A stretch of 64,000 bases of DNA from Adineta vaga (lineage: Eukaryota > Animalia > Rotifera): NCBI GenBank assembly GCA_021613535.1, contig CP075497.1, positions 7,812,001 through 7,876,000 of the forward strand. The letters are read 5' to 3'. Positions 32,331 through 45,500 of the stretch are shown here, one piece after another. The position numbers and the translations under genes were made by a program. Numbering within the stretch: the stretch's first letter is position 1; the number at the start of each line of letters is the position of its first letter. A model generated the notes under the pieces. That model was not told the origin of the DNA, ran no database searches, and saw only the letters and a program-made list of their open reading frames with translations.

Positions 32331-32923
32331 GTTGTTATTGATGTTTATATATACGCAACATCGTCATTTGTACTGAATTTGACGCTTAAAAGACAACTAA
32401 TTTAACGTTGTAAAGAAATATATTATTCATCTCTTTTTTTCCCTTGAAATAAAACATTTGTCTACGTATTATTTCATGAATAAGATGTTAAACAGAGTAA
32501 AAGAGAAAGAGAAAAAAAAACTTGACCAGGTTTTAATTTAATAAACAGGCATAATTTCTTTGCTTTTCTTTTCTCATTTTTCCAACATCTCATCCCCACG
32601 TGTAACAACGACATCGAGGTATCGAAGCTATACTCGTTTTTTCTTTCTTTCTTTCCTTCTTTCTCTATTCAATTCTCTAATACACCTTGTTTCACGATGA
32701 GAGAAAAAGCATGACATTTTTCCTTTGCTTTTGATTTCAAGGACGTCACCAATCAACACATATACATACACATACACATACACACTGTAATCATCCTTCG
32801 ACGTATTTCAATTATCAATTGCGCTTACGAATTGTTTATTTCAATACCCTGGATGTTATCTTTCTCATCTTATTCATCGAATAGTTTCTAATAGTTCAAT
32901 ATTCCAGATTCTTCGTTTCTTCA

Positions 32924-34400
<1,477 letters not shown>

Positions 34401-35523: not shown

Positions 35524-38500
35524 ATGACAACATTATCTGATTTGATTGTTGCATCGGAAAAATATCGATTTGAAACATTTGCAAAGTAATTAATTTCATG
35601 AAATAGCATATGATTATCAAATGATTTCTTTAGTCTTTTGAATTTTCCTGAAATAACACGACGTCAATTAGCTCTTGCTGGTTTTATTTATCAAGATTGT
35701 CAATGTTTATGTCGGACATGTGGAGTGACAATTAATTTAATTACTTTAGATGAAGATCTAACATATGCTTCGAATTATTTTCGAAAATTACATCGAGAAA
35801 AAATTTCACATCTTGGTAAACGTTGTGCTTTTCTTCTATGTGAATCAGGTACAAATATTGATGATCTTCGCCCTGAATTATCCGAAAAACTAGTATGGGA
35901 TGATGCTGAACAACCAGATTTTCTTGATTATAATGTTCGTGTACAAACATTTCAATCATGGCCATATAGTCAACAACATCAAGATAATACGTTTGTTACA
36001 TCAACTACAATGGCAAAACATGGATTTTACTATTCAGGTAAATCATTTCGAATTTCATCTTATCAAGTTTTATGAAATATTGATCTACGTAGGACCAAAT
36101 GATGGTGTAACTTGCTTTTATTGTGGTAATACATTGATTGATTGGTCAGATGCGATCCACTCATCGAATGAAAAGATTGTTCAACTTGAACATGCAAGAT
36201 TTTTTCCTTGTCGTTTTATAATATATACAGCTGGAGGGAAATTTGTAACAAATGCCGGTTATTTTCATGTCGTTTCCGATCGAGGTAAAGAAAATTATTT
36301 AGATGATTTGAATATTTCGTTGCAATTTTTTTTGAGAACGTCGTGCTCGTAATCCAATGATATCAAAATCAATGCTCGTAACAGATAAACCCCAATCCAT
36401 TGATCAATGTTTATTAACATTTGAAAAGTGGCCTGATTATGCTCCAATATCTGCGAAAGATCTTGCGGAAACTGGTTTTTATTATTTAGGATCTGAGTTA
36501 AAAGTCAAATGTTACATGTGTGATCTTGAAGTTGATGATTGGCATCATGGTATGACTGCATTTGGTACACATAGTCGACGTCAGAATACTTGTGAATTGA
36601 TTCAAGCAATTCTATCGACGAAAACTAATGATTGTCAATGTGTTAATGAAAAATGGCGTTTGAAAACGCTTGATGGATTAACATTCGGTTCGAATTGTGA
36701 TGAACGTTTATGTCGAGAATTAGCTGCATGTGGTTTTTATCGTTTTAAAAATACGAATAATATTCGTTGTGCATATTGTGGAGTTTTGATTCAACCAAAA
36801 TCAGATTCATCAATTATGTTTCAACATCGTTATTTAGCAAAACAATTACGAAAAACGACCGTTCTAGATTGTTTAATGGTTCGAGCACAATGTCCAACAA
36901 ATGTTGTCATTCCTGATCGAGAACGTTTTCCAGAATATCCAGATTATCAATCTGTATTCGATCGAATCAAATCATTTGATAGTTATAAAGAACGATATAA
37001 AGTTATGGACGATTATATACGACAAAGAGCGGATGCAGGATTCTTTCTTGATAGTAAAACATATCTTTTTTAAGATTCGAAGATTTTTCACCGTTAACTT
37101 TTTCTTATATAGCTTTGAAACGTATGCGATGTTTTCAATGTGGAAATACATTATCTGTTAATGACAAAAAATTATATGAAAAATATCCACAATATGATAT
37201 TACAAAATTACATGCACATTTTTATCCAACATGTGAATGGGTTAGAGAAATATTAGGTTGTAAATATATTGCACAAGTACTACTAGATCGAACGAAATCA
37301 CGTAATTTCTTTTTTGCTATGATGTGATGTTATATGTTTGCGTTTCTTTTCTGTTCATTAGATCAAATAGAACATCAAAGATCGTATGATACACAATTTT
37401 CATCAGCATCGACTCCGAATGTGTTACAATCATTCTCCTCTATTTCAACAATACCAAGTACAATTGAACGACGATCTTCGAATGAAGTGAACATGTCTGA
37501 TTTTTCAGAAGAATCGAATGACGAAGAAGATTACGAACCAGTTGCAACACCATTTCGAGCATATTTTATTGAAAATCTATCCCCCACGCAATCACCTGCA
37601 TTACCTATGACATCATTGCATGAATCGTCATCAGATCCGGCTGCACAAGCGTGTACTGATATGATTACATCTACTAATCATGGTCAATTGACATCACCAA
37701 TTGTATTAAACCAAACAAATCCATTTCAACAATTTCAATTACCAACAAATTCACCAGCTTTAGATATTACTTCTACTAGTCTTTCACCTGTTGATCCACA
37801 GGCTTTTTTTTCATATGAATCAAATCGTTTAGATTCATTTAAAAAATTAAATCGTGAAACTTTCGCTCAGATGAAAATTGGTGAACTTGCTTATGCTGGA
37901 TTTTATTTGAATGCCGAAGGTACAAAAGTTCAATGTCCATGGTGCATGCTTGAATTAACTGAACCAATGTTCGAAAGAATTCTAAATCGACGACCTATCA
38001 TTCCTCGTTCACCCTTAAATGATGAACCATGGACAGCCACGCGTGTACATAGACATGTAAATGGACAAAATACAAATAAAATGCATTCATGGTGTCCATA
38101 TGTAAGACGAGAAGTGATCGGACTCTATTCAAACAGTATTATGGTAACTAAATTTCGATAGCCTTTTGATTATTTTTTTACAAAACTTCATGTTTTTTTT
38201 CTAATATAGCAACAAAGTCATATGCAATATCCGGAATATCCGTCGTATTCCATAGTAGAAAAACGGATTAAATCGTTTGCTTCTGATTGGAATTATCCAA
38301 GTGGTAGTCGTTTATCGAATTCTATGATGGCAGCTGCTGGATTTATCTATTTGGGTGAAGGCAAAGTATGCTGTTATTATTGTGGTAATCGTTTATTCAA
38401 TTTTGAACCGCTGTAAAAAAACGTTTTATATTGAGAAAACTAACGTTCAAGTTCAATTTTTTTCTAATTTAGTGATTGTCCATTCGAAGAACATGCAATA

Positions 38501-39054
38501 TTTCATCCACTGTGTGAATATATCATACAAAAACGTGGTATATCTTATATTGAACGTATATTAAAAGAAGCACCACGAAGTATATTGTTTTTGAAGAATG
38601 ATAGTTACTGTAAAACAAATTGTTTTAGTTCCACATGCCCGACAGAAATATGAAATCAATGGTACACAAAAAATTAAGTGTATTTATTTCGATAAAACCG
38701 GTATGAAAGCTGTATAATTATCGTTATATATATTGATATTCACTAATTATTAACTTCTTTTCAGCTCTAACAGATAATAAAAATAAACGAATACCAGTCA
38801 AACAGATCAATTCACGATCGTTAACAACAACTAATCGAAGTATTTCCCATCCAACAACAAATAATTTCAATACGAATGAAAATAATTGTCATCTATGTTG
38901 GGACAATCTTGCTACGTATTCATATGATCCATGTCAACATTGTCCAATGTGTGGAGAATGTTTTGCAAAATTAACTGAAGAACAACATGAAAAATGTTTT
39001 TTTTGCCGGCGTCGAGCGACTATAAATTCACTTGCTCCACGAAATTTGTTCTAA
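35524..39054 (+). CDS. Inhibitor of apoptosis (IAP) protein with seven BIR domains and a C-terminal RING, about 1000 aa, 10 exons
   Basis: All exon junctions are in phase. Seven segments carry the R..(T/S)F...(A/C/T/H)GF...CxxC...H...C signature, with BIR3 lacking the Arg. The RING reads CHLCWDNLATYSYDPCQHCPMCGECF...CFFCR. TAA at 39052-39054. Confidence 0.9.
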
Positions 39055-39129
39055 ATAAATAATCGTGTTTTTATTCTACACCGAAAAATAAAGTCAAGAA
39101 CAAAGAGATAATGTTTTGTGTTTTTTCAG

Positions 39130-40628
39130 ATGGCTAGTTCACTTGGACGAACGATAAAAACAGTCACTGTAATTGGTGGTGGTCTGATGGGATCAGGCAT
39201 AGCTCAAGCAAGTTTAGATTCAAATTTGTTGTGTTTGAGATTAAAAATAAATTGATTGAATAGGTTGCTGCTGCAACAAATCATCAAGTTATACTTGTTG
39301 ATCAAAAACAAGAATTACTCGATAAAAGTTTGAATATAATTGAAACAAGTTTGAAACGTATCATTAAAAAGAAATTTGATAAAGATCAAGAAAATGGCGA
39401 GAAATATTTGATAGAAGTTCGAAATCGTATTCAAACAAGTTTAGATGTTAATGATGCTGTAAAATCAACAGATATTGTTATCGAAGCTATTGTAGAAAAT
39501 TTGAAAATTAAACAAAAATTATTTAAACAAATCGATCAAATTGCACCGAAGTTTGTTTCATTTTTACATAGTAAACTTGAAGATATTGTCAAATCTTTAG
39601 ACATACAATTTTAGCCAGTAATACATCATCATTACCAATAACTGAAATTGCTAAAGATGTTCAACGACAAGATAAATTTGGTGGTTTACATTTTTTTAAT
39701 CCAGTGTAAAGAAAATAGATTTAGCAGTATTAGTTATATTTAATTCGATCAGTATAAGAACGTAATTAGGATGACCGAGCAGATCAGTGTGCATGCATGT
39801 TAGTTATTTATGTAGAATGAATAAATAACGAATAGCATGGATGATTCTTAATCCAATTAGAATGAGCTTAGAGAACAATGGTTGTAGTTTAGAAATCTTT
39901 CTGAATCAGTGGTCTCGATCGATCGTGTTTTGCGTGCAGAGATAATCAGATTTTGTCAAAATCGCATCAGAAACCAATAGAACATAGAAGTGTTGGTTTG
40001 AATAGAATATCTCTCGATTTCATCTTGATTTACATATAATGTTTTAACCTGGAGTTATGATAATTAGAAATCTTCAGTTCAATATACTTATTTATCTACT
40101 AGACCAATTATGAAATTACTTGAAGTAATTCGTACAGCATCAACGAGTGATGAAACAATTCAAACATTATTAGCTTTTGGAAAGGAATTAGGAAAAACAA
40201 CTGTTTCTTGCAAAGTTTGTTTCTCTAAATTAATCAACATCATCATTTCTGTTTTGCAATCTAGGATACGCCTGGTTTTATCGTCAATCGATTATTGATA
40301 CCATATTGTTCCGAAGCATTCCGTATGATTGAACGTGGTGATGCCACGGCTGAAGGTAATGATATTCATTTGAGAATCAAGCAGAATGAAATCCAATGTA
40401 ATTGTAGATATTGATATTGCAATGAAACTAGGTGCTGGTTATCCAATGGGACCAATTGAATTAGCTGACTATACTGGTTTAGATACATCAAAATTTATTA
40501 CCGACGGTTGGCAAGAACGTTTTCCCGATGAACCATCATTTCGTACAAGTAATCTAATTAATAAACTGGTTTCCGAAGGCAAACTTGGTAAAAAAACTGG
40601 TGCCGGTTTTTATAAATATACCAAATGA
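39130..40628 (+). CDS. HADH: Short-chain 3-hydroxyacyl-CoA dehydrogenase
   Basis: Motifs [69 protein letters not shown] and [14 protein letters not shown]. The first intron is GC-AG (39208-39263). Confidence 0.96.
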
Positions 40629-40741: not shown

Positions 40742-42591
40742 TCAGGAACAACATAATGCAATATAACTTGCACTATATAATACACTTTTGTTACATTTTG
40801 GACAAAATTGTGCTTTATAGGTCCATTTTTCTAATATATCTACAACACATCTGAAAAGAAAGATGTAGCTTTAGGAAACATTTTCTCATTTATTTCTTCT
40901 TTACCTTTCATGAAAAAGATGTGTACATGTTAATGCTTGAATATGATCTGGTTCCATTCCCATTGGTTGTTCACAAATTTTACATAGAAGATCAGCATCT
41001 TGATAAAGACGGTGTGCTAAATCAAATGCTTGTCGTGCATCATCTACTTGATTCTCGACGGTAAGTATACGTTCATTTAACAAATGACATCGTGCTTGCA
41101 TTAATTTATTTCCCATTGCAACTGAAGTTGATAAAGCTGTGGCAAGTATTTCAGATGCCTAGTAGAAAAAAACAAATATTCAGTTTTGTTTTGTTTTCTT
41201 TACTTAAATCAATAGATCTACGTGCTTATAGATCATTCGAAGTGTTTTCCTTAACTATCGTTCTCTACAACATGTCTCAACCATCTACTGATCATACAAA
41301 TCAACTATAATTCCATCCGGCTTTTCTCGATTATAACAGATAAAATAAATAGTATTCGAATACATACACGACACTCTCATTAAAGATCTTGATTAGAATA
41401 CAACACAACAAATAACAAGATGATTTTTTTATTAAACAAAGCATCGCATAAAGATGTTAATTTGAAAAACATTCTTCTCGTATTTCACATACAATGATGT
41501 TTAACATCATAGAATTATATACAACACAACTAATCACTTACCATTTGTGTGTGTGTACCGAGTGCTAATAAAGTTTTGACTAGACCAAGCATGGCTAACG
41601 TCGAACTGTATCTGTCATTCATGTCTTGTAACATTTGAATAGCAGCTTCATATTTTTTGCAAGCAATCTTTTCAGATAAAAAACAAATGCAACATCGAAT
41701 ATATTTATTTCTTATAAATTTTGATTTACTTCATAATTTTTTTGAGAACGTTGAATATCTCCAACACAAACAAGACATTTCGCTTGTACAGGTCGATCAC
41801 CAATACTTGATGCAGCACGCATTGCTTCCTGTAAATAAATCCATCTTCTGTCTTTTCTTCTGAAATCAAAACATTTCAATAGTTACTTCGACAGATTTTG
41901 TTGCACCTTCAAAATCACTCATTAATCGTAATGGTGTTGCTAATTTTAATTTAGTTAAACGTACAAATTTAGCACAATTATCAGTATTTTGTTCACCGGA
42001 ATAGGCATTCGTTGATACGGCTAATTCGTGTGCACGACGTTGATAAGCTAATGCTTTTGGAAAATCTTTCAAAGCAAGAAAAACTTTAGCTGTTGTACTC
42101 AATACTTGAACTTCCATTAGATGATCTTCTGTTTCATGTGAAATACTTAAAGCTTTATCAAGACATTCTAATACTTTAGGAAAATTACATAGACCAATAT
42201 AAGAATCTGCCATAACTAAAAATGCGTAACCTTGTATAGCATCGCCTGTCGGTGAATATTGTATAGCGGAACGTGAATAACTGACAGCTTTAAAATAATC
42301 TGCAAGCATTTCATTAGCACGCGATAAATTCAAATAAGCTTGCGAACGAAGTGTATTATCGTCAAGTTCATGTGCAATATCGATTTGTTGAACAGCATGT
42401 ACAAGATAATCTTTATTTCGTCCACGATCACGTGATGCTAAAGCTAAATATCCCAAAGTTGAAAATCGTAAGCGACTATCTTTCATTTTAGGTAAGGCTG
42501 TTGTCCATTTTTTAATTGCTGCATCATAATTTTTTTCCGCATATAATTCTAAACCTTCAGCAACTTGTCGACGAGTCATTCGTTGACCCAT
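40742..42591 (-). CDS. RAPSN: Rapsyn (43 kDa receptor-associated protein of the synapse), 5 coding exons
   Basis: MGQ N-myristoylation start and EGLELY, followed by TPR repeats (SQAYLNLSRANE) and a C-terminal RING-H2 (CKICEQPMG...LTCTHLFHERC...CPKC). Confidence 0.92.
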
Positions 42592-45500
42592 GACAATGAA
42601 GAGGAACGAAGTCTTTCGATACTTTTTGTTTTGTTTAATGTGCGCACGAATAGTTCAATTTATAATGATGTTGACAATAATAAAGTTAACAAATCAATCG
42701 TGGAATGACACTAAGTTGTTAACAAAATGATAATGAGAAGCGAGATAATAATTAGATGAACGTCTTCATTTTCGTTAAGAGTCGTTTGTGATGATAATGC
42801 ACGTTGGTACGGTGGTATTTCTTCTGAAAATCGTTGATCAAACTGGCAGAAAAAAAAACAAGAAAATATGAGATGAAGAAGAGGAACAAGAAATGGAACG
42901 CGAAAGAGCTTTAGTCAAATAGCAACAAGAGAGAATATTATATTGTCATGTCTCATCTCTTCTCTTATCAGCCATATAACGATGATCGAAAAGAGAAGCT
43001 AAACGAGAGAGAAATAAAGAGAAAAAAAAATAGAGAAACACCATGATTGAAAAAATTATTCGTTAAGAAAAGATTTCTCGAAGCCAGATTTGACTCCTAT
43101 TGGTTACAATATGCACATGTGTAGTACATCAAATATTAGCTGATATCAATCAGATTAATTTGTTCGAACTCCATCGATAAACATATATAACTATATATAT
43201 ATTTACATGTGTATATGAAATAATAAAATGAACATTAATGCATTTCTCTGCTCGAATGAATTTTTTCAGTGTAAATTTGGCCAACATGGAAAAACATAGA
43301 GCAATGATGGATCATAGTAGTTTGTTCGCTTTTACATTTAACAATATTTTTATCTAATCAATGTATCGTAGTCTAAGCACTAGAGGCATACTTATTCGCG
43401 CATCTCGCGTGTCGTATTTTCTTCTAACTATCTTTCTTTCTCTAGAGATTCTAACCCTTACAATAAAACATCAACAGTAATAAAACGCATGTGCTCTCAC
43501 ATTGAAAATGATGATAAGTGTCATATGAATATAATCAATTAAGCAGATGAATACGTATCATTCTTTATGGTCATATTTACACTGGTATGGATCAAGAGGT
43601 CTATTTTAAAATCATTAACCCAATAAAAAAATCATTCACTATAGATCACTGGTCTCGAAAAGTCATCTACCATGAAAAAACTCTTCGCTCGTTTATTCTC
43701 TCTTTCTATCTCTCTCTCTCTTTCTCTCTGTTTCTTCTCACACTTCCTCTTTTACTCAATTATTTATAAAAAATCAATTTTCCAAACGTTTATTCTAGCC
43801 GTTATTCGTCTCCCTATTTTTTTTCATTCTTTTCTTAGACTACTCCGTCTTTTTATCGGCTGTTACTTTAAGCTCAGAACACGCGTCGGATAGAGCTCGA
43901 CTCTCCTCCTTCTATTGTCATCCGATATATTTCCATGCTGTACCCAACAGACACACACACACACACCACATTCTTTTTTCCCGTTGTTCAACATGAGAAA
44001 ACACTAAGCACATACATCTCTACTCTCTTTTCTTTGCATTACAGTTAACTAGCAGGGTGAACATACATGAGATTTATTGTCTGTGTCTTCTTACAAGACG
44101 ACAAAAAACAGGAAACTAAAAGGAGCAAATTTTACCGTCATGTCAAAAGCTGTCTAGTTTTCATTGAACATACTTATTCTAAATTGAACTCTCGAGCATT
44201 GTTTATGTAAGTGGCCGAGTGTGATCAAGATTTGATTGTTTTTTTCGGACAATGTTTGTTTTATCCTTACTAGAAAAATGAACGAAAAGAGTTAAATCAA
44301 CAAGAAACGAAGAAGAAAAAGGCTGTTAACAAATCTCCATGAACTACTCTAAACTGACAAACACTAGTTATAATAATGACGATGAATAGATGATAACAAA
44401 CATATAGTTAGAACATGAACGAATACATGGGTGATAATTGATTTCCGTCTTAACGAGTTGCTTTCATTTTTCTCTTTTCTAGTTATTAATTTTCATTATT
44501 TTTATCTCTTTCATATTGGTGAAATAAAAGGAAAAAGAACAGAAAATGCAATTTTCAACAAACATCAAACAAATATATATTGATTAAAATACTAATCGTA
44601 CATAACTTTATTATAACAATGTGACCTTATTTATATGCATCATAATAATGAAATTTCTCTTCATAGATATGTCTAAAAGTGTCAAATAGTTATATACAAG
44701 TTCGGATGAAACAAACAAGTGTAACGAAATCTAATTATTATTTTACGGATATTATTTGGAAAAGTTTTCGTTGATTTCTAGTATAAAAAATAGTTACCAT
44801 TTGTCCTTTGGCGAAAAGCAATACTGTAGTTTTCTCTCCCTGTATTTAACCTTTTCTTCATCGCTCTGGTATCATCTGTTATTACTGAGTATTTTCAACG
44901 ATAGTTTCCAAAAGGTTATCAAACGTAGCATCTTCACTATGTTATTATTGCGGAACTCTATTTTCAATCAATGGCTCAAATTTTGCTCACTCGGAAGACT
45001 AATCGAAAACAAAAAGTAATAAAAACAAAAAAAGAACTTCACTCAATAGAAATAATATATATTCCTCATGGAAAACACAATTAAGAAAATAGATAAATAC
45101 GCAAAAGAATGAAGATATTTTGTTCACTTAGTAGTATATCAATGAAGAAAAAAAAATAGTGCGTGATTATATATGACACGAATTTATGTTTAAATGTCAC
45201 ACTTCTACTAAGAAATCTATTGATTTAATTAGACATGAACTATTTTCTCAAATGAATTGAACCTTTTCCTAATAATTTCAAATGCTTTTTGCGTCTTTTA
45301 TAAGCTCTATCTAATCATGAAATGGATCCAAAGTCATTCTAAAACCAATTTTTCTACGTATAGAGCTTTAAATAAAGACAAGAACTCTTCTTTTTTTCCG
45401 AAACTAATAGACAAAATCCAATGAAATACTCGAATGCAATCGTTTTTTCTCCATCATTAAATACATTCACATGTCAAAAAACAAGAAGAGATATAATTGA

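Follow-up and report, generated by a model that had tools for sequence, protein, structure and literature searches.

Results

Gene structure and transcript support

Within the stretch of DNA from the bdelloid rotifer Adineta vaga analysed here (64,000 nucleotides, hereafter the window), an IAP gene of 10 coding exons lies on the forward strand (35524..39054, +) and encodes a protein of 1005 amino acids. Its start codon ATG at 35524 and its stop codon at 39052-39054 are both correct. The exons (35524-35585, 35634-36037, 36093-36284, 36337-37053, 37113-37301, 37362-38143, 38210-38412, 38473-38579, 38629-38700 and 38765-39054, all on the plus strand) are separated by nine GT-AG introns of 48-66 nt, and removal of these introns leaves a single 3018-nt frame without an internal stop. 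The encoded protein comprises seven BIR repeats with a Ser/Thr/Pro linker, followed by a C3HC4 RING. The window is AT-rich (~30% GC) and gene-dense, with introns of 48-66 nt. An ERK-type kinase gene lies upstream of the IAP gene, the gene for 3-hydroxyacyl-CoA dehydrogenase (HADH) directly downstream, and a rapsyn-like gene nearby on the opposite strand. Four Rotaria models show an IAP fused to HADH; such a fusion was considered here and rejected: HADH is out of frame and 76 nt past the stop, two AATAAA motifs lie between the genes, and no joint connects them.

Transcript contigs of 3315 nt from run X1 and 3289 nt from run X3 each contain 9/9 of the exon joints at uniform depth, a transcript contig not being the same as a single molecule. 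Both span the region from the 5' UTR to position 38999 and are interrupted there, within the RING exon, by an allelic bubble. Six of the nine joints were recovered from run X5, which belongs to a different study than X1 and X3 (one study), and none of the nine from the unspliced run X13; because spliced joints are present in X1, X3 and X5, we regard these three as RNA runs. The locus had been proposed, in a preliminary description made from the sequence alone, to hold one in-phase spliced gene, and the nine introns, the 1005-aa frame and the full set of joints in one contig bear this out. The A. vaga database model I4U23_029718, a protein of 688 aa with five BIRs and without a RING, is identical letter for letter over aa 227-909 and then runs into intron 9; since all nine introns are spliced in one transcript contig, this model is truncated at both ends.

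That two or three adjacent IAP genes were taken as one could be argued from the NCBI model, which spans aa 227-909 only, and from the fused IAP predictions reported in other animals (PMC13159474). Against this reading stand the contigs of X1 and X3, each of which reaches by itself from the 5' UTR into the RING exon, the uninterrupted 1005-aa frame, full-length models in three genera, and a relative whose 989-aa ORF lies on a contig of 3010 nt. Separate genes behind the contig are very unlikely, and the annotation artefact, to which we assign a negligible probability, is already largely refuted.

Seven BIR repeats with conserved zinc ligands

Searched with a profile of 357 canonical BIRs, which came from 114 unrelated proteins of other organisms, the IAP protein gave exactly seven domains, with scores of 22, 52.5, 67, 19, 32, 28.5 and 63 bits for BIR1 to BIR7; in the shuffle control, the top of 216 domain hits from 200 shuffles reached 4.3 bits. 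The profile covers BIR1, BIR4 and BIR6 over its first two-thirds to three-quarters only. With the Pfam profile PF00653 (cut-off 22.9 bits), the exon ORFs scored up to 79 bits and the database protein, corresponding to aa 227-909, scored 159.8 bits. Taken alone, BIR6 reached 28.4 bits, whereas BIR4 (22.6 bits) and BIR1 without its exon-1 part (15.3 bits) fell below the cut-off. Pfam alone under-counts the BIRs: among 12 homologues scanned, it marks 5-7 stretches in the ten longest. The earlier reading of seven BIR signatures and a RING therefore stands by the canonical-BIR profile and by a RING score of 33.7 bits on PF13920 (cut-off 27 bits). Every repeat scores as a BIR with our own profile (7/7, 19-67 bits); PF00653 misses BIR4 and the exon-1-less BIR1.

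The CxxC motifs of the seven repeats lie at aa 47, 163, 278, 364, 465, 713 and 837. No variation is seen at any of the 28 zinc-ligand positions in 21 homologues wherever the residue is present in the 22-row alignment, 17 rows of which cover all seven repeats; the fourth ligand in BIR1, BIR4 and BIR6 was assigned from conservation, not from structure. Canonical C-x2-C-x16-H-x6-C spacing is found in two of the seven repeats, namely BIR3 (36399..36602, +; aa 241-308), with C-to-H and H-to-C spacings of 16/6, and BIR7 (38255..38524, +; aa 798-867; 16/6), a canonical type II repeat. BIR1 (35554..35835, +; aa 11-88) is atypical, with ligands C47, C50, H74 and C85 and a spacing of 23/10. BIR4 (36645..36881, +; aa 323-401; 15/14), also atypical, has the inferred fourth ligand C398, and its H-to-C gap is 14 aa here versus 22-27 aa in the paralogue clade described below. 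The third atypical repeat, BIR6 (37814..38104, +; aa 673-769), shows the longest spacing (34/14). BIR2 (35926..36220, +; aa 119-198; 22/5) and BIR5 (36954..37243, +; aa 426-502; 23/6) are of the C-terminal, or BIR3-like, type and carry insertions of 6 aa and 7 aa, respectively; the normal spacing previously ascribed to BIR2, BIR5 and BIR7 applies to BIR7 but not to the other two. Between BIR5 and BIR6 lies a Ser/Thr/Pro-rich linker (37298..37807, +; aa 521-670; S 18%, T 10%, P 9%), which is poorly conserved and predicted to be disordered, with pLDDT <50 in an orthologue model.

In the full AlphaFold model of the Rotaria orthologue P0007, a helix, three-strand, helix pattern is predicted in all seven repeats at a block pLDDT of ~60-85, the BIR1 equivalent having BIR-like secondary structure at pLDDT ~75-80. 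The packing of the domains is modelled without confidence (pTM 0.29), and the interval between the BIRs and the RING is predicted as a beta-hairpin plus disorder. The BIR7 model superimposes on cIAP1 BIR3 with Z 13.5 and an rmsd of 2.5 A over 97 aligned residues. BIR4 folded alone gives a core at pLDDT 82-89 and a stretch with the fourth ligand at <50, and in a Foldseek search all 37 of the 37 listed matches of this model were BIRs (best E 0.004). The models thus predict a BIR fold for BIR7 and for the BIR4 core, the zinc closure of BIR4 being putative.

Distribution and evolutionary origin

Relatives of the seven-BIR IAP were found in three Adineta species, five named Rotaria taxa and Didymodactylos, and in the family search 28 of the 40 listed matches scored at least 565 bits, the next one scoring 143 bits. 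Full-length seven-BIR relatives occur in Didymodactylos and in an intronless record. The Adineta and Rotaria sequences form two clades (SH-aLRT 100 and 99) with both genera in each, and Didymodactylos falls outside both under midpoint rooting. Bdelloids are reported to be anciently tetraploid (PMC8494291), and the two clades would fit such an event. No named non-bdelloid orthologue appeared in the homologue searches, and a diverged monogonont one may exist. Judged from these alignments, the layout of seven BIRs and a RING is intact and fixed across Adineta, Rotaria and Didymodactylos.

Between the paralogue clades, identity is 66% for BIR1, 68% for BIR4, 59% for BIR6 and 71% for BIR7, and 34% for the linker. 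These similar BIR values indicate that the degenerate repeats are constrained as strongly as the canonical repeats, and their equal conservation points to a function without an IBM groove.

The preliminary description had suggested repeated duplication of a pair of one atypical and one typical BIR, and our results support this: BIR2, BIR5 and BIR7 are of one type by tree, profiles and intron phases. They are mutual best matches in hhalign comparisons (96.8-98.9%) and fall inside a clade of C-terminal BIRs from three-BIR IAPs (SH-aLRT 94), in which BIR5 and BIR7 group together (support 92). BIR3 is placed among N-terminal BIRs of other IAPs (support 86). The underlying tree comprises 179 rows and 85 columns, drawn from eight proteins of the family and part of the remaining matches, and many of its forks are unsettled; its BIR1/4/6 clade was not relied on, having a support of 80, long branches and a tool warning. 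By profile comparison, only BIR1-BIR4 is a good match among these three (91%). An intron four codons past the GF motif, identical in codon and in phase (phase 1), is common to BIR2 and BIR5, and further phase-1 introns lie 24, 22 and 21 aa past the last Cys of BIR2, BIR5 and BIR7. Because tree, profiles and shared intron phases agree, we infer internal duplication of modules arranged as (BIR1-2)(BIR3-4-5)(linker-BIR6-7)-RING, probably formed before the bdelloid families split. Duplication from a XIAP/DIAP2-like gene to give (x-C)(N-x-C)(x-C)-RING would be the simplest reading.

Comparison with known IAP architectures

In the largest survey, which covers 2,843 IAPs from 312 species, the number of short BIRs ranges from one to six (PMC13159474), and no rotifer terms were found in the accessible main text and supplement of that source. 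Five BIRs are reported from kuruma shrimp (PMC2838849) and aphid IAPs (PMC7768685), a five-BIR IAP has been published for Hermetia, and novel BIR types are described in oysters (PMC8917759). The premise that characterised animal IAPs have one to three BIRs thus holds only for model IAPs, up to five (PMC2838849, PMC7768685) or six (PMC13159474) being published, and the rotifer protein exceeds the maximum of that survey by one. Its likeness to published high-copy IAPs lies in a BIR count increased by intragenic duplication; it differs in that its layout is fixed class-wide and in both paralogues rather than species-specific, and in that its repeats are strongly diverged from one another.

A census of BIRs in 116 non-family proteins (114 from the best 150 of 7044 matches, plus two Xenopus cluster members) listed 13 with five BIRs, three with six and two with seven. 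Both seven-BIR records represent one Xenopus BIR-FIIND-CARD locus; X. tropicalis LOC100492519 shares the seven BIRs but carries FIIND and CARD. Haemaphysalis XP_077525638, with six BIRs and a RING, looks like a doubled 1-2-3 triad, and five BIRs with a RING occur in database proteins of sponges, a sea cucumber, Ornithodoros and Ca. Endonucleobacter. Unlike the rotifer IAP, these five-to-seven-BIR proteins have canonical repeats in clades of their own. Our repeat-specific profiles for BIR1, BIR4 and BIR6 reached at best 26, 21 and 30 bits on them, versus ~185-220 bits within the rotifer family, and given these low scores none of the listed proteins counts as an orthologue. Seven BIRs are therefore rare and not unique to rotifers, and the combination with a RING was not encountered elsewhere among the best 150 of 7044 matches. 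A literature search with a minority of subscription journals in its scope returned no description of a seven-BIR IAP with a RING or of a rotifer IAP.

XIAP/DIAP2-like IAPs are reported to have three BIRs of subgroups E2, E1 and C followed by a RING (PMC13159474). Like them, the rotifer protein closes its BIR array with a C-type BIR ahead of a C3HC4 RING, its BIR3-4-5 form a triad of N-type, middle and C-type repeats, and its BIR7 resembles BIR3 of XIAP and cIAP1 in sequence and fold; unlike them, it has seven BIRs, five of which carry insertions within the zinc motif, and a RING tail without an aromatic residue. No Pfam match to UBA, CARD or death domain was obtained in 12 family proteins, UBA being a domain that profiles are reported often to miss (PMC13159474). 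NAIP is the top sequence and Foldseek match, through summed BIR matches, but combines three BIRs with NACHT and LRR and has no RING, whereas the rotifer IAP has a RING and neither NACHT nor LRR. Pfam scans of the rotifer IAP likewise returned none of the marks of NAIP, Bruce or survivin (NACHT, UBC, a single long BIR). By its sequence, the seven-BIR rotifer gene is a clear IAP-family member with a new domain architecture.

Predicted IBM-binding repeats

The IBM groove is described as G306, L307, W310, D/E314, E/Q319 and W/H323, and that of XIAP BIR2 as shallower owing to K206 (PMC6360406). We placed the equivalent residues by their distance from the zinc ligands, a placement that is less certain in the insertion-bearing repeats. 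BIR7 carries L844, F847, E848, D851, E856, F860 and H861, giving L, F, D, E and F at the listed sites. Its site 306 is basic, as in XIAP BIR2, to which it aligns there (Lys or Arg in 18/19 sequences), and Phe replaces Trp at 310 and 323; the Lys/Arg306 together with Phe310 and Phe323 could weaken IBM binding. In BIR2, equivalents of L307, W310, E319 and F323 are present in 20/20 sequences and there is no acid at 314, which with the 6-aa insertion leaves IBM binding by this repeat uncertain. BIR5 has lost the equivalents of W310, D314 and E319, and in BIR3, for which no IBM groove is predicted, the equivalents are M314, T319 and R323. Across BIR1, BIR3, BIR4, BIR5 and BIR6, W310 occurs in BIR3 only, none has an acid at 314 as counted from the His, and site 319 is L, T, Q, L and V, respectively. 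A full groove set, aromatic though not identical, is thus predicted in BIR7 only and partly in BIR2, no such groove being expected in BIR1, BIR3, BIR4, BIR5 and BIR6, and the protein would offer one or two IBM sites, not seven.

These results weigh against the proposed role as a multivalent caspase/IBM sponge keeping apoptosis down during desiccation or DNA damage, a proposal that we now regard as highly improbable. It draws on the descent of BIR2, BIR5 and BIR7 from the IBM-binding C-terminal BIR type, and on a gene given only as 'apoptosis inhibition' in a set of 58 A. vaga genes induced by radiation (PMC10809525). Measured against the published residue list (PMC6360406), however, five of the seven repeats are without the groove residues, BIR5 among them despite its C-terminal type. 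Nor is a stress role favoured by the wider context: R. magnacalcarata, described as a non-desiccating species (PMC5916493), has all seven repeats intact, and p53 is reported to be missing from A. vaga, with apoptosis unlikely after radiation or desiccation (PMC10809525). Desiccation tolerance is probably ancestral, hence the argument from R. magnacalcarata is weak.

The RING domain and its tail

The C3HC4 RING and its tail (38887..39051, +) comprise the RING at aa 951-990, R991, which corresponds to the linchpin R606 of cIAP1, and a tail of 15 aa, as compared with ~13 aa in dimeric IAP-type RINGs. All eight ligands are kept in this RING and throughout Adineta and Rotaria. The activity of cIAP1 is reported to need the tail aromatic F616 (PMC6349121), and at the corresponding +11 site the rotifer protein has Pro. 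An aromatic at +11 is present in 0/18 family RINGs versus 83/93 RINGs of other IAPs, the linchpin Arg in seven of 18 family RINGs and in 0/9 of the paralogue clade, and the Arg at +9 (cIAP1 R614) in 14/18. Identity between the paralogue clades is lower in the RING (49%) than in the BIRs (59-71%). On the cIAP1 precedent, this is an IAP-family RING without the tail aromatic needed for dimeric E3 activity, and this feature, together with the absence of the linchpin from 9/9 members of the paralogue clade, favours a non-standard or partner-dependent E3.

The same two features could also mean that the RING is inactive alone and that the protein is a ligase-dead or partner-dependent adaptor, acting as a decoy or as a heterodimer partner, possibly of its ohnologue in an MDM2/MDMX-like manner. 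We rate this quite unlikely, in that the eight ligands are kept in both genera, the +9 Arg persists in most family RINGs, the protein of the window itself retains R991, and monomeric RING E3s are reported to exist (PMC6349121).

Discussion

The reading we favour, with a confidence somewhat better than even, is that the seven-BIR IAP is a scaffold in which a single IBM site predominates and the E3 is non-standard or depends on a partner. The protein would serve as a signalling and ubiquitin scaffold in which BIR7, perhaps with BIR2, binds IBM-bearing caspases or IAP antagonists, the five remaining repeats provide non-IBM docking surfaces, and the RING recruits E2-ubiquitin by a non-standard route. 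Its partners and pathway may lie in cell-death or NF-kB-type signalling, by analogy with DIAP2 and cIAP.

A simpler, DIAP1-like apoptosis brake would have BIR7 capture a caspase or antagonist and the RING ubiquitylate it, BIR1-6 mainly tuning or auto-inhibiting this activity. BIR7 adjoins the RING and is the best structural match to BIR3 of cIAP1 and XIAP and to DIAP1 BIR2 (Z 13.2-13.5), and in both flies and mammals C-subgroup BIRs are reported to bind caspases as well as antagonists (PMC13159474). We nevertheless consider such a brake unlikely: the RING tail is without an aromatic, six further repeats under equal constraint are many for mere tuning, damage-induced apoptosis is reported as unlikely in A. 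vaga (PMC10809525), and other IAPs are present in this species, with at least 12 PF00653 rows reported (PMC12220480).

An extension of the scaffold reading, which we offer as speculation and hold to be decidedly unlikely in its entirety, is that the insertion-bearing BIRs (1, 4, 6 and 5) represent a new non-IBM zinc docking class within a fixed seven-module scaffold that bdelloids made from an XIAP-like gene, that the ohnologues, one with and one without the linchpin Arg and both without the tail aromatic, form an obligate heterodimeric E3, and that the complex sets a cell-death or innate-immune threshold in a p53-less animal.

Variation in BIR number is a known theme, and a new mechanism is not demonstrated here. 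What the gene adds is an extension of the range of IAP architectures past the range of one to six short BIRs given by the largest survey, in whose accessible text rotifers do not figure, together with a correction of the truncated database model I4U23_029718. Its natural BIR variants with long insertions and its RING without a dimer tail are material for structure-function work. It indicates that many BIRs in one protein can be an old, fixed trait rather than the product of a recent species-specific expansion, and it provides an expressed candidate for studying how bdelloids control cell death and ubiquitin without p53.

Coding variation and zinc spacing in the IAP gene

Among the sequencing runs compared over this locus, 32 coding differences were found in the seven-BIR and RING gene (IAP) between window positions 35809 and 39042, comprising 16 silent and 16 replacement changes, and none of these 32 differences affected a zinc ligand. 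At the end of BIR2 (36192-36213), the A. vaga protein has an H-x5-C spacing, whereas Didymodactylos has H-x6-C, and thus the one-residue deletion in this repeat appears to have arisen within bdelloids.

Other proteins with high BIR copy number

Several other database proteins carry six or seven BIR domains. The Xenopus tropicalis protein (P0055/P0174) combines seven BIRs with FIIND and CARD domains, and a protein with six BIRs is present in Ca. Endonucleobacter (P0100). Six BIRs and a RING are found in P0048 and in a Haemaphysalis protein (P0041), the latter of which looks like a doubled 1-2-3 triad.

Genomic neighbourhood and linkage to HADH

The IAP gene is preceded, 1.1 kb upstream, by an ERK/MAPK-type kinase gene (32885-34400), and a rapsyn-like gene lies downstream on the minus strand (41866-42654). 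In the directly adjoining 3-hydroxyacyl-CoA dehydrogenase gene (HADH), intron 1 (39208-39263) is of the GC-AG type and was found in all four runs. Within 39642-40132, low-depth contigs cover the 397-nt HADH intron (39706-40102), and in one run a joint of the CT..AC type is present at 39641-39690. These observations hint that the intron is retained or that a spliced antisense RNA exists.

At the boundary between the two genes (39055-39207), the IAP stop is separated by 76 nt from the start of HADH, which is out of frame with IAP. Transcript contigs from four of four runs span this gap without a break or a joint, and two AATAAA signals are located nearby, at 39054 and 39087. The unbroken cover could reflect overlapping UTRs, given the two signals, or read-through. 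In four Rotaria database models (P0005, P0006, P0010, and P0017), IAP and HADH are joined as one protein; these fusions are probably prediction errors, but the four models show that IAP and HADH have stayed linked in both of the paralogue clades that make up the seven-BIR family in Adineta and Rotaria.
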